DNA from: Eledone cirrhosa
Taxonomy: Eukaryota
Reading direction: 5' to 3'
DNA: 64,000 nucleotides
Assembly (NCBI GenBank): GCA_964016885.1
Contig: OZ024740.1
Span: 359,104,001-359,168,000 of the forward strand
Shown here: positions 24,388-41,914 of the stretch, piece after piece
Layout of the letters: every line of letters begins with the position of its first letter
Position numbering within the stretch: the first letter of the stretch is position 1
The notes under the pieces: generated by a model
What the model saw: only the letters and a program-made list of their open reading frames with translations
Told to the model about the DNA's origin: nothing
Databases searched by the model: none
Translations under genes and position numbers: made by a program

Positions 24388-24512
24388 GGAAAATGTTAGA
24401 CCCCCCCCCCCACCCGACGGCAGAGCTCAACCCGTTTCGACGGCTATTTCTGGACTGGACTCTACTACCTAAGTATTGAGTACTCTGGTGCGTTATGGTT
24501 CATCTGGTTCCA
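24388..24512. mobile_element. Half-hammerhead fold-back element, partly collapsed copy
   Basis: Short arm (CCCGACGGCAGAGCTCAACCCGTTTCGACGGCTATTTCTGGACT) fused to the distal part of the long arm, directly after (TA)n. Confidence 0.75.
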
Positions 24513-24588
24513 CGTTTGTTTAAAATATATACATATATATATAGATAGATAAATATACACGGGTGTGTATGATTGTTGATAGAAGATT

Positions 24589-24927
24589 GTATTAATAAGA
24601 GGAATTCCAACTTTGTCTGATTTACTTGTTTTATTTACAATCCTTTAAAATTTATAATGGTATTATAATGAAATAGTATGATAGAATATTAAATGTTAAG
24701 TGTTAATTGAACAAGTACGTTCATGCTTTCGCAATCTTCAGGTTCATAATGTGTGGTGACAGTCAAGTTTGCAATGACAATTGCAAACTTGACTGTCACC
24801 ACACATGTTCAATTAACACTTAACATTTAATATGCTATCATACTATTTCATTATAATACCATTATAAATTTTAAAGGATTGTAAATAAAACGAGTAAATC
24901 AGACAAAGTTGGAATTCCTCTTAATAC
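24589..24927. repeat. Fold-back (inverted repeat) Penelope-type remnant with a degenerate hammerhead at 24708-24746 (-)
   Basis: Arms are reverse complements around TTGCAA-TGACAA-TTGCAA. Only the left arm keeps, on the minus strand, TGAAC CTGAAGA TTGCGAAAGCAT GAACGTACTT GTTCA. Confidence 0.8.
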
Positions 24928-25007
24928 ATTTCTTTGTGTGCTTGTGCATGTATATATAAACGCACACATGCGCGTATGTATAATACGTATATATATATAT
25001 ATATATA

Positions 25008-25200
25008 TAACGAAGGAAATGTGGTAAGGAACCAGGTGGACCATAACGCACCAAAGTACTCAATACTTGAGGTAGTAGAGTGGGTAATAGGAACCAGTAA
25101 GACCCCGACAGCTGAGCTCAAGCCGTTTCGACGGCTAATTCTGGACTGAATTAGCCGTCGAAACGGCTTGAGCTCAGCTGTCGGGGTCTTACTGGTTCCT
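25008..25200. mobile_element. Half-hammerhead fold-back element, complete palindromic copy in (TA)n
   Basis: Long arm 25008-25141, loop TGGACT, short inverted arm 25148-25200; (TA)n on both sides. Confidence 0.85.
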
Positions 25201-25313
25201 ATATATATATATATACATATATGTGTGTGGGGGGGGGGGGGGTTCAATCGGGGGTAACCAGAGTATGTAAGGTACTCAATACATAGCAGAGTATAAATAT
25301 TTAATATAGAAAT

Positions 25314-25365
25314 GGCTTCTATAGGACTAGAACTGTTTCATTCGAAGGAAATCATCAGGAAAGCC
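25314..25365 (-). ncRNA. Hammerhead ribozyme motif (type I, Penelope-type)
   Basis: GGCTTTC CTGATGA TTTCCTTCGAAT GAAAC AGTTCTA GTC CTATAGAAGCC. Core intact; stem I pairs only distally. Confidence 0.6.
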
Positions 25366-25683
25366 GACTGTCAATGTGATATGGTGGTATTTATACATTT
25401 TCTGGTAGTAGGGAAGGTATGGATTGGGGTGAGTTGAGGTCATTTGCTGATGAATTTAAAGAATGGGGAATCTTTGAAAAATCTATATTTAGAGAAAAAT
25501 GCATAGTGATACATGATACAAATGCAAGCACTCCTAATTTTCAAGGTTCATTTATTCTAAGCAAACAAAGGGTTTTCATTAAGTGGTTGTATCAACATGC
25601 TCTGTTAAAGGATGGTGAGGTCTACAAAAATGATCAGGTGTCTACAATCACACACACACGAGCGCGCACACACATACACATAT

Positions 25684-25808
25684 GTCGAAACGGCTTGAGC
25701 TCTGCCGTCGGGGTTAAACTTTTTCCTGTTACCCACTCTACTATCCTAAGTATTGAGTACTCAGCTGCGTTATGGTCCATCTGGTTCCTTACCACACCTC
25801 CTTCGTTA
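25684..25808 (+). mobile_element. Half-hammerhead element, long arm only
   Basis: GTCGAAACGGCTTGAGCTCTGCCGTCGGGG...CCTTCGTTA followed by (TA)n. Confidence 0.8.
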
Positions 25809-38580: not shown

Positions 38581-38949
38581 ACACCTAGTTTTGGTTGAAA
38601 ACTTAGTTATAGAAGATAACAGAATTACAGCAAACACAAACAGAGAATAGATGATAGATTTAGTTCAAGGATAGCTCGCCAATTCAGAGTTATTGTAACA
38701 TTAAGCCATCCCCGGATGGCACATACGCAACAATGCTAACCATTGTGCGTTCGTAGGCGCGATAAAGTCGGGTGGGGTTGTTATGTGGCGACAGAAATTC
38801 TGATGCCATTCATTAATCAGAACCAAACATTCCACCGCTACAGCGGTCTACAGGTATTAAACTGTGTCAGTAGACATTGGCCGATAACCAGCCTAGTGTG
38901 ACGGTAAAAAATTAAGGTAAAGTAGCTACTTATATGTAATTTAAAATAT

Positions 38950-39260
38950 ATATGAATAAATAAATACAACAGTTAAGAAAAGGCACTCAATTCATGTGTG
39001 AAGGTGATGTCCGAATGAGTATCCCCCACAACCAACTAACTTACCCTCCACCTCTGGGTCCTGACCGACAGGATGAAGAATGTATTGCCCCGGAGGATGG
39101 CAAGGGAGACCCGCTGGAACAGCCACCCCTCGTCGCGAGGCTCGCAGCCTCGGGCAGCCAACACCACCCCGTAAGAGGCAAGCAGGGATGTGGATCGGGG
39201 GCGAAGAATACCGAAAGGCTCCACTTCTACAGGCTCTACCACAAACCTATCCGAAAGCGG
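38950..39260 (-). mobile_element. CRE-like RLE retrotransposon 3' fragment
   Basis: EPVEVEPFG...CEPRDEGWLFQRVSLAILRGN resembles the C-terminus of CRE-clade proteins. Confidence 0.65.
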
Positions 39261-41055
39261 CCGATGTATAAGATTATAGAAATTGTATAAAATGATAAAA
39301 GATAAAAAGTTATAAACAGATATAAAAACTTATAAAGATTACAAAAATTATATTTAACTCCGTTAACTACCCAACCACGCATGGGATACCACACCTACAA
39401 TGGTTGATTTACAAACATCTTGTGCTTTAATTTATTGCATCATCGTTTACTAACCGGAATGATCAGTTTTTCCATTTGGTAAACAATATAACATAACTGG
39501 TATGTATAGTACGAAATTAATATTTAGGTTGAGATCTTTTAAACTCATATGTAATGAACTAATATGTATGATTAGCAAACACATTACACAAAACTATTAG
39601 TAGTAACAAGCTAATAGGAGAGAGAAGGTAAGAGAGATGCGTGACAATAACTGCAAGTTGTATCTATCTTTAGTCAAGAATACTTGAAGTATAGGCATTC
39701 TACTTCACAAATGAAGATCTTTGCTTATAGTAATTTTTATATTGATAAACATTTTAATACATTCGGTTTATTTCATAGCTCCAAGTAAAAATACTTGTAG
39801 TGAATTTGAAGTATCCAGCATTTTGAGGTAATTATTATTGAAGCTAAAATATTAGGATATTGATTCGAAATACCTACATATCAACTACAGTATATATTGT
39901 GTTGTATATTAGGTACATCATCATGGTTTGCCCAGCAGCTAACAACGAAATTATTTTGGAAACATACCATAAATATAACATTTATTTCATTAAGTGACAA
40001 TCAACTGTGCCATTTTGAAACATTGTATGTGCAAACATATGTATACATATATGAATATTCTAAATTCATGCCCCCACGAATTTGTCCAAATACTGGACAT
40101 CTTTTAGCAAAAATGATTTATACCCCGCTGTTGCTTTGGCTGCCATCTTTAATGCATTAGTGCATTATTCTGTACGTATATATACGTGTGTGTGTGTGTG
40201 TGTGTGTGTGTGTGTGTGTGTGTGTGTGTGTGTGTGTGTGTGTGTGTGTGTGTGTGTGTGTGTGTGTGTGTGTGTGTGTGTGTAATTCAAATTAAAAAAG
40301 AAAAAATATATATAGAGAGAGAGAAAGAAAGAGAGAGAGAGAGAGAAATTAAAAGATGTATATCTATTTATTTATTTATACAAATACCTATATATATACA
40401 CACACAAGCACGCGTCACACACACATTGGACTAAGTATATTTTATGTATATTTTGACTTGCAGACAACAGAGTAAATGGACAGCAACAATCATAATTAAT
40501 CAGATTTTTTACTGGTTGTAGCCATTCGAGTGGTCTCTGGTCATACTGGGGTAATCTATTTTAATCTATTGCGTATTAAATCGATCTCTATTTGCTGGAC
40601 CACTAACGAAGTGAAATAGACAGAATGTGAAAGAGAGGGAGGGACAGCGTGAGAGAAACTGAAGACGGAGAATGAGATAGTGTAAGAATAGATAGATAGG
40701 CTGAGACAGAGAGTAAAAGACAAGGAAAGCAAGAGTGGAGAAGATAAGACGGGAAGAAAGAGAGAGAGAGAGGAGTGATTATGTGTAATAGAATACGAGA
40801 GAGAAAGGAAAATAGTGACAGACAGAGGAAAAGACAGACAAGAAAGAAATAAAGTGTGAGATAAAGAGAAACAGAATGAATAAACGATAGCACTGTATTT
40901 AAAATTTCAACTTGATGTTTTGTTCGTAAAACCGGTTAGCCACTACTCAATAGGAATCCCTTATGTCTGTACACATGGATGAAATAAACTGAATGCATCA
41001 TTTATTCACAAAATCTGTGGGGGTCAAGCCCTTTGGAACAATATACGACAATGCA

Positions 41056-41426
41056 AGAATGTTAAGTTATCTATCGGTGGATTCACATTTACTTCAGATT
41101 TGGCATTTAAATATATGTGTGGTTGGCTTGATCTTGTCAAGATTATTCGTTTTCTAATATTACGCGCATATATATATATGTGTGTGTGTGTGTGTGTGTG
41201 TGTGTGTGTGTGTGTGTGTGTGTGTGTGTGTGTGTGTGTGTGTGTGTGTGTGTGTGTGCGTGCGTGTGTGTGTGTGTGTGCGTGTGTGTGTGTGAGTGTG
41301 TGTGTGTGTGTGTGTAATATTAGAAAACGAATTATCTTGACAAGATCAAGGTCACCACACATATTTAAATGCCAAATCTGAAGCATAAAATAAACGTGAA
41401 TCCACCGATAGATAACTTAACATTCT
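41056..41426. repeat. ~110-bp inverted repeat enclosing a (TG)n tract
   Basis: 41056-41163 and 41314-41426 are near reverse complements. Confidence 0.85.
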
Positions 41427-41503
41427 ATATATATGTGTGGGTGTGTGCATTGGTGCTCCGACTTAGCGATATACATATATATATTCGTATATATGTATAT
41501 ATA

Positions 41504-41603
41504 TAACGAAGGAAATGTGGTAAGGAACCAGGTGGACCATAACGTACCAAAGTACTCAATACTTAGGGTAGTAGAGTGGGTAATAGGGGTCCTACTCGTT
41601 CCT
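41504..41603. mobile_element. Half-hammerhead element with the palindromic centre deleted
   Basis: Start of the long arm (TAACGAAGG...GTAATAGG) joined directly to the end of the short arm (GGTCCTACTCGTTCCT); (TA)n flanks. Confidence 0.8.
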
Positions 41604-41710
41604 ATATATATATATATATATATTTATATGTATTTATATATATTTATATATATATAAATATATATAAATATATATAAATACATATAAATATATATATATA
41701 TATATATATA

Positions 41711-41914
41711 TAACGAAGGAAATGTGGTAAGGAACCAGGTGGACCATAACGCACCAAAGTACTCAATACTTGAGGTAGTAGAGTGGGTAATAGGAACCAA
41801 TAAGACCCCGACAGCTGAGCTCAAGACGTTTCGACGGCTAATTCTGGACTATTTTAGTCCAGAATTAGCCGTCGAAACGGCTTGAGCTCTGCTGTCGGGG
41901 TCTTACTGGTTCCT
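41711..41914. mobile_element. Half-hammerhead fold-back element, complete palindromic copy in (TA)n
   Basis: ...GACGGCTAATTCTGGACTA-TTT-TAGTCCAGAATTAGCCGTC GAAACGGCTTGAGCTCTGCTGTC GGGGTC... Confidence 0.87.

Follow-up and report, generated by a model that had tools for sequence, protein, structure and literature searches.

Palindromic copies in the window

The window, a 64-kb stretch of the Eledone cirrhosa genome taken at its full length, contains nine sites occupied by a palindromic element about 200 bases long, of which some 100,000 copies are present genome-wide. A 28-nt core of the element matches the window 11 times, compared with no matches in 100 shuffles. All eight of the copies originally predicted are present and lie in or next to (TA)n as described, and a ninth site (34853-34899), which likewise adjoins (TA)n, had been missed. 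Each palindrome consists of two 5'-truncated copies of a longer parent element, joined head to head in (TA)n. Positions within the arms are given as n, counted from the A of TTAGTC (L154:1261) as n=1. The sites are as follows.

24388..24456, minus strand: short-end arm, n=1 to about 58, in which a C run is expanded
24459..24511, plus strand: long-end arm, partner of 24388..24456, of which just n=67-120 remains
25010..25147, minus strand: long-end arm, n=1-138; 143/144 nt identity to a young autonomous unit
25148..25199, plus strand: short-end arm, n=7-58; 55/55 nt identical
25684..25806, plus strand: lone long-end arm, n=16-138
34605..34741, minus strand: long-end arm, n=4-138, then (CA)n/(TA)n
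34853..34899, plus strand: short-end arm from n=21; the separate site absent from the earlier list
34938..34994, minus strand: short-end arm from n=12; close to the arm end, 9 nt are duplicated
35002..35121, plus strand: long-end arm, n=6-138, partner of 34938..34994, with a 12-nt internal deletion
37854..37911, plus strand: lone short-end arm, n=1-58, with (TA)n runs on both sides
41506..41602, no single strand: collapsed pair; its long-end arm (n=57-138, minus strand) occupies 41506-41587, and its short-end arm (plus strand) retains only the final 15 nt
41713..41850, minus strand: long-end arm, n=1-138
41851..41855, no strand: junction filler, 5 nt
41856..41913, plus strand: short-end arm, n=1-58, with the GAAA core (n=19-22), stem III, GUC and the 3' strand of stem I; predicted hammerhead cut after n=41

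Measurements in the window agree with the prediction of a turn 10-20 nt upstream of GAAAC and of one arm some 80 bp longer than the other: the turn lies about 12-22 nt 5' of GAAAC, and the long arm exceeds the short arm by 80 nt. Short copies carry the 3' half of a hammerhead only. A search upstream of the window copies for CTGAnGA, or for any 5' hammerhead core strand, found it absent from all of them, as had been noted.

The parent element and its hammerhead

Upstream extension in L073 and 24 further loci led to the parent, a young Penelope-like retrotransposon of 3,531 bp with a 717-aa ORF, which begins at n=232, and a complete type I hammerhead. It forms tandem arrays with a period of 3,531 bp, in which four full units are 99.9-100% alike, matching the tandem and partial-tandem pseudo-LTR arrangement of Penelope-like elements, and it shows an inverted 5'-truncated copy together with a tail at one end. 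Many parent copies retain intact frames. The ORF has YRDD at residue 348 and an AYIG motif near its C-terminus, and ESM Atlas feature scores of 0.96-0.99 relate it to clusters with HTH_animal, GIY-YIG and RVT_1, although Pfam returned no match to it; on these sequence features, it is predicted to be a single ORF encoding a reverse transcriptase with a C-terminal GIY-YIG endonuclease. Short-copy haplotypes match autonomous parents, and the window copy at 25008 differs from the parent at one of 144 nt. The palindromes are not an independent element. That a Penelope-like element bearing a type I hammerhead lay behind the half motifs was thus correctly anticipated.

The parent had been expected to combine a linked RT/GIY-YIG ORF with a CTGAnGA 5' half. 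Such a parent exists, but its core differs: it reads UUGAnAA (U3-A8), with N7 variable (A, C, G or T), or, in one subfamily, CUGAGAA with a C3-A8 mismatch. For this reason, searches for CTGAnGA parents missed it, two giving no matches and another giving 47, of which 20 were inspected and none had stem I before the motif. Judged by its sequence, the motif has the predicted hammerhead core YUGAnRA ... GAAA ... NUH with a 3-8 pair. The natural stem II, seen in parent copies only, is about 10 bp long with a loop of about 32 nt. The lowest-energy fold of L154 gives the three-helix type I topology, although its z is only 0.07, and among 19 sequences 90.5% of cells are paired in the hammerhead helices. 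Covariation was sought in stem III, where those 19 sequences contain no two-sided change, as is also true of stem I; stem II has three, all arising from one old-versus-young split. Rfam gave no hammerhead match at the copies or at the parent. All copies span the predicted cut site, which indicates that the RNA templates were uncleaved there.

Arm ends and the stop in loop II

The arms have two fixed 3' ends, 80 nt apart, both of which share TA with the target; the (TA)n target masks any target-site duplication at the palindromes. Of 50 short pairs, 49 combine an arm that ends at n=138 with one that ends at n=58, a bias with p ~5e-14 if the ends were independent at 0.5, and the same combination occurs in 13/13 long insertions readable at both ends (20 examined). 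The exceptions to this pairing are L274, which is long+long and is the 1 in 50, and L080 from a random sample, which is short+short. In long insertions, the two arms stop hundreds to thousands of bases apart (for example, at unit positions 3393 versus 1638 and 2574 versus 2990). Single short arms also occur. Agreement between the arms of a pair (38/47, versus 8.4 when shuffled) may point to one RNA per insertion or may reflect subfamilies active at different times.

At their other end, about 85-90% of arms terminate in hammerhead loop II within a stretch of 11 nt, and the resulting 5' wall is sharp (n=-4 to +7). Genome-wide exact counts fall from 60,695 arms at n=+7 to 27,951 at +1, 8,680 at -4 and 6,152 at -9, with a plateau at 5,310 where the core lies about 48 nt upstream. 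The wall is broader than one base, and some arms reach -4 or beyond. An older subfamily ends at the same place, where T(T/C)AGT(T/C) is conserved. The expectation of a fixed turn therefore held, but the turn falls inside loop II rather than where a long stem II would have its tip; because the arms stop inside that loop, the perfect hairpin that had been read as stem II is the join of two inverted arms. In hand counts, two features suggest run-off: T runs of 7-18 nt precede n=1 in 4/43 arms, and an unexplained G precedes it in 7/43, versus one unexplained C. In a second set, the first cDNA base after n=1 was A in 71, C in 16, G in 11 and T in 2 of 100 (hand count), a weak cap signal. Loose ends at L154:1257, considered as evidence for the wall, proved to be mid-subfamily parent sequence.

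Separately, run X2 has a depth step over n=1-140 that agrees with the wall but is confounded by subfamily divergence upstream; neither this step nor the loose ends were counted in support of the wall. Assembled RNA contigs from one run (share 0.06) cover a different part of the element.

Origin of the palindromes and relation to known elements

We consider it likely that the palindromes are head-to-head pairs of short 5'-truncated copies, produced by priming from two DNA ends, run-off at the RNA 5' end in loop II, and end joining. The element's endonuclease would cut both strands of (TA)n; priming would occur at n ~139 from one DNA end and at n ~59 from the second, with a single complex coordinating the two, and both cDNAs would run off the RNA 5' end inside loop II. 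The RNA 5' end at the wall is probably a transcription start. Since the wall would be a capped start, transcripts would have only half a ribozyme at their 5' end. End joining by the host would then link and trim the two cDNA ends, and the same two priming sites may give long copies when the RNA is a read-through or tandem transcript, or when a template jump has occurred.

Two-ended priming could also hold with the wall marking a stall or an RNA break in loop II in place of a transcription start. The wall lies just beyond the 3' strand of stem II, a structured region, and in Penelope itself the known start lies 5' of the hammerhead; on the other hand, the loop sequence varies by subfamily outside the T(T/C)AGT(T/C) motif that coincides with the wall, A tails and an extra G fit a template end, and other families in the genome turn at fixed sites upstream of their own hammerheads, so that we regard this reading as unlikely. 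We would assign only a very slight probability to a wall that represents a 3' splice site (YAG, n=-1 to +2), with copies made from spliced RNA. TTTAG or TTCAG is found at the wall in all subfamilies and Penelope has a 5' intron, but when this was tested 0/53 arms joined upstream parent sequence non-contiguously, two apparent matches being the inverted partner arm, and we rejected the model.

Self-priming, in which one cDNA folds back on itself to prime the second arm, was one of the readings in the original prediction and has been proposed for Penelope palindromes (PMC3846280, in the portion available). Many short junctions do resemble loops of 0-6 nt with 0-4 nt of microhomology, and subfamily variants are common to both arms. 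However, among the 39 short pairs that are informative, 18 have a short arm that extends further 5' than its partner, an outcome that a single folded-back cDNA could not produce; the arms of long insertions end far apart, single short arms exist, and there is no reason for a copied arm to stop at n=58 nearly always. A rescue by later inversion of the spacer would require near saturation in very young copies. This arm geometry makes snap-back improbable and argues against the mechanism proposed in 2013. Still poorer are the prospects of another of those readings, a MITE- or SINE-like non-autonomous unit that spreads whole. Whole 202-bp copies with fixed ends, dispersed genome-wide at a copy number of ~1e5, are what it would produce; yet junctions differ between copies, the two commonest (6/50 each) recurring across subfamilies, and such junctions, made anew, argue against spread of the palindrome as a unit, as do the short-copy haplotypes shared with autonomous parents, the unequal arms, and ends that are both internal parent positions. 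We regard it as largely refuted. Identity as a MITE or other DNA transposon was likewise rejected, given arms that differ by 80 nt, a variable center, and ends internal to a retroelement. In our reading, the palindromes are dead-end products of the parent, not a self-spreading unit.

Penelope elements were already known to have inverted copies, one-sided tails and U3-A8 cores. In the portions available to us, Craig et al. 2021 (PMC8557442) and Arkhipova et al. 2013 (PMC3846280) describe Penelope-like elements that encode an endonuclease, carry an inverted 5'-truncated copy and have a tail on one side, and the E. cirrhosa family shares with these a single ORF with a C-terminal endonuclease, partial tandems, a head-to-head inverted copy, a tail at one end, (TA)n targets and a hammerhead in the pseudo-LTR. 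Compared with what is described there, the tail is 80 nt in place of 30-40, about 85-90% of arms are shorter than 145 nt with one stop inside the hammerhead, and long+short pairing is near strict. We found no report in the literature of such pairing or of a stop inside the ribozyme.

For PAc (Poseidon of Anolis carolinensis), the accessible part of Frangieh et al. 2024 (PMC11167929) reports that both strands are cut and extended in vitro, that the tail is set by a pair of internal sites, 3' of the hammerhead, at which reverse transcription starts, and that the template is uncleaved RNA. Cutting and extension of both strands in our model, two internal starts and an uncleaved template are features in common, and the first two lend support to that model; in E. 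cirrhosa, unlike PAc as described there, the two putative starts are located in the 5' leader and have TA in common with the target. According to that text, the start site in PAc does not differ between strands and lacks homology to the target, which counts against our model; the text contains no discussion of inverted pairs or of run-off at the RNA 5' end. Likewise, the D. virilis Penelope transcript starts 46 nt ahead of a 75-nt intron (PMC2377424), and this intron abuts helix I at its end according to the consulted part of Cervera and de la Pena 2014 (PMC4209133), placing the start upstream of the hammerhead and counting against a start inside it.

The latter paper, to the extent available, reports minimal Penelope hammerheads that include a U3-A8 variant, and pairs on opposite strands 100-700 bp apart. 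The parent hammerhead resembles these in being type I, with U3-A8, G10.1-C11.1, a long helix II and a palindrome in loop III, and departs from them in its full 5-bp helix III, its loop II of ~32 nt, and the predominance of the 3' half alone among genomic copies. Animal non-LTR retrozymes, in the part of 10.64898/2026.07.22.740005 at hand, are also short non-coding Penelope-derived sequences with a type I hammerhead sequence, but occur as head-to-tail repeats with whole ribozymes; the E. cirrhosa palindromes pair their copies head to head, carry half the motif and give no indication of spreading independently, and we rejected retrozyme identity because head-to-tail whole-hammerhead repeats are absent.

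The origin of inverted and tandem structures in Penelope-like elements was called open in PMC2377424 and in the available portions of PMC3846280 and PMC8557442, and the palindromes likely record how this poorly understood class inserts. The family offers a very young intact parent and ~1e5 footprints with which to study insertion, and these predict that each of the two DNA ends has its own priming site and that run-off occurs at a defined point. Speculatively, the capped transcript may start in its own hammerhead and be primed just 59 and 139 nt from its 5' end, one site per DNA end, with a strong-stop-like cDNA pair as the default product; full-length and tandem copies would then need read-through RNA or strand transfer through the 41 nt between the start and cut sites, like the retroviral R repeat. 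We hold this extension tentatively and think it doubtful; if true, a hammerhead start and two close priming sites would account within a single cycle for tails, inverted copies and the regeneration of pseudo-LTRs. More broadly, the family shows that in an animal genome a large class of MITE-like palindromes can be retrotransposon by-products.

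Copies and parent element

As originally predicted, the window holds a multicopy palindromic element in or beside (TA)n: nine sites were read directly in the sequence (four pairs, one collapsed pair, and four single arms), and a 28-nt core matched 11 times in the window versus 0 in 100 shuffles. Searches of the 3.0-Gb genome recovered 202-bp palindromes whole from many contigs, with constant outer ends and variable centers. Ninety stretches of 10 kb, chosen at round coordinates, contained 53 arm matches at 34 sites (hand count), or roughly 1 site per 26 kb and about 1.1 × 10^5 sites per genome.

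The linked parent element that had been anticipated was also found, with a 5' core other than the CTGAnGA proposed for it: genome patterns demanding CTGAnGA yielded no parent, and the parent reads UUGAGAA. One random stretch, L073, continued upstream of the usual stop and, used as a query, returned 25 loci with a common upstream region leading into an open reading frame (ORF). In its youngest form the parent is arranged in tandem arrays of a 3,531-bp unit, and the units are 99.9 to 100% identical to one another; window copy 25008 is identical to this unit at 143 of 144 nt. A stop-free frame of ~784 codons is preserved in many parent copies, and the ORF from ATG is 717 amino acids. Pfam gave no match in this ORF, which is predicted to encode RT and GIY-YIG domains on the basis of its YRDD and AYIG motifs, its ESM Atlas neighbors, and 41 to 45% identity to the other Penelope-like ORF in the window, at the end of which lies a subthreshold GIY-YIG match. 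The family is a fresh member of an already described class; passages of PMC8557442 and PMC3846280 report (TA)n targets, tails on one side, and truncated copies in inverted orientation. More than 50 repeats of a 55-nt ORF piece adjoin the 5' end of one tandem array (L159, G000:C1:91489170-91491980).

Hammerhead anatomy

The parent carries a hammerhead motif, with cleavage predicted, in the order ACCCC, UUGAGAA, stem II (loop of ~32 nt), GAAA, a 5-bp stem III, GUC, and GGGGU. Passages of PMC4209133 describe U3-A8 as a Penelope hammerhead variant and also report opposite-strand hammerhead pairs. Rfam gave the parent hammerhead no score. Its lowest-energy fold has hammerhead topology, yet its stability is that of shuffles (z = 0.07); of four sequences folded, L095 alone adopted a different shape. 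Two further subfamilies keep the same layout with position 7 free, and exact pattern matches number 84 in the old subfamily and 1,254 in the middle subfamily. Across 19 aligned sequences, 90.5% of stem cells pair; the covariation sought in stem III was absent, stem I likewise had no two-sided changes, and the three in stem II all come from the old-versus-young split. The L093-L115 subfamily has a CUGAGAA core with a C3-A8 mismatch and predicted weaker cleavage, yet many long copies.

Short copies start inside loop II and thus hold only the 3' half of the hammerhead, as had been proposed. The turn, previously read as a fold-back at stem II, lies inside loop II, and the perfect hairpin of short copies is, judged from its sequence, a join of two arms.

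Other repeat features in the window and at L073
26270-26314 (-) and 30631-30675 (+): inverted hammerheads of the 26270-30675 element (Rfam Hammerhead_1, 29.1 bits, below the 34-bit threshold)
25358 (-), 26013 (-), and 61712 (-): cores resembling hammerheads, from other repeat families
7457-17972 and 51145-53131: frames of non-LTR retrotransposons, with motifs for endonuclease and RT
L073:6400-6470 (-): hammerhead-like motif of another family, UUGAUAA core, in an inverted pair

The element at 26270-30675 is a long, broken Penelope-like element with RT and GIY-YIG frames at 28050-30331 (-).

Fixed ends, pairing, and the 5' wall

Positions (n) are numbered from the A of TTAGTC (n = 1; L154:1261). 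Arms end 3' at n = 58 (short) or n = 138 (long); TAT comes next in the parent after both and merges into the target. Exact head-to-head junctions, with both arms reaching n = 13 and a gap of ≤30 nt, number 13,443; the first 50 of them, which all lie in the initial 22 Mb of contig C1, comprise 49 long-plus-short pairs and 1 long-plus-long pair. Twenty long insertions were examined: all 13 with two readable ends were long plus short, and 7 were incomplete or complex. The random sample held one short-plus-short pair (L080). Since (TA)n is symmetric, we infer that the asymmetry must arise from the element's own complex. In the openly accessible literature, no account was found of this near-strict rule or of cDNAs running off at a transcription start within the hammerhead, though supplements or Repbase may describe such copies.

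Most arms stop 5' at a "wall" in loop II, n = -4 to +7. With the same downstream anchor, exact genome-wide counts are 60,695 at n = +7, 27,951 at +1, 8,680 at -4, and 6,152 at -9; patterns with more bases also drop matches through mutation, a loss that the plateau in the counts shows to be small. Arms with the core ~48 nt upstream number 5,310 (gapped pattern, genome-wide). The furthest arm of each pair stops at +1/+2 in 30/50, at -1 to -4 in 7/50, and at +3 to +7 in 13/50, and nine old-subfamily arms stop at -5 to +4.

The wall is probably a transcription start. T(T/C)AGT(T/C) is conserved there, the loop upstream having diverged, and this motif is similar to the Drosophila initiator. Hand counts on 43 arms, drawn from 40 chosen sites that were mostly n = +1 matches outside the junction set, found T runs of 7 to 18 nt ahead of n = 1 in 4 and a G before n = 1 without a partner-arm explanation in 7, versus 1 such C; a second set of 100 arms gave a weaker signal (first cDNA-strand base past n = 1: A 71, C 16, G 11, T 2; hand count). 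Extra G in L1 and SVA has been ascribed to cap copying (passages of PMC3287187), and the Penelope pseudo-LTR is described as having an internal initiator/DPE promoter (in part of PMC2377424). However, the Drosophila virilis Penelope start lies upstream of its hammerhead, according to portions of PMC2377424 and PMC4209133, which counts against a start at the wall. A splice acceptor was rejected, with 0/53 arms joining noncontiguously to upstream parent sequence.

Two cDNAs or one fold-back

In an anole element, passages of PMC11167929 report that both strands are cut and extended, with two internal starts and uncleaved RNA. Here, the two ends of a cut (TA)n would each serve as primer for one cDNA, one per internal site; if the RNA starts at the wall, the cDNAs would reach its 5' end and run off after no more than 60 and 140 nt, and both would gain a few untemplated bases before trimming and joining. 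We regard the parent, ribozyme anatomy, two ends, pairing rule, and wall as demonstrated and two-ended priming as highly probable; the whole model, with the wall as transcription start, is a reasonably likely reading of the sequences.

The original prediction had one cDNA snap back and self-prime the second arm, or the palindrome itself spread as a unit. Fold-back of a long cDNA cannot add extra 5' bases to the short arm, and fold-back of a short cDNA cannot provide the tail; of the 39 informative short pairs, 21 have a long arm that extends further 5' and 18 a short arm that does so. The stops of the two arms in long insertions bear no relation to each other, the longer arm may be of either kind, and 0 to 4 nt of overlap or filler is seen at the junctions. 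Self-priming is accordingly disfavored. The two arms share a six-column haplotype in 38/47 pairs (three with indels left out) versus 8.4 for shuffled pairs, which would fit one template but also subfamilies with different periods of activity. The two most frequent junctions (6/50 each) occur in more than one subfamily and so recur rather than descend, which argues against a spreading palindrome. The footprint of the family makes an open mechanism testable.

The window has other palindromes. A second Penelope-like head-to-head palindrome at 24599-24922 has a minimal CUGAAGA hammerhead, and what is missing from one arm is precisely the ribozyme as far as its predicted cleavage point; copies at L129, L072, and L196 start at the same turn. 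A third family's palindrome, also head-to-head (53097-53378), has a hammerhead motif in both arms and turns ~70 nt upstream of the core. At L048, L042, L031, and L049 (central match), an arm of the present family is joined, at its n = +1 to +8, with an arm from another repeat family, itself a head-to-head palindrome at L048 and L042; these fusions suggest template jumps between families.
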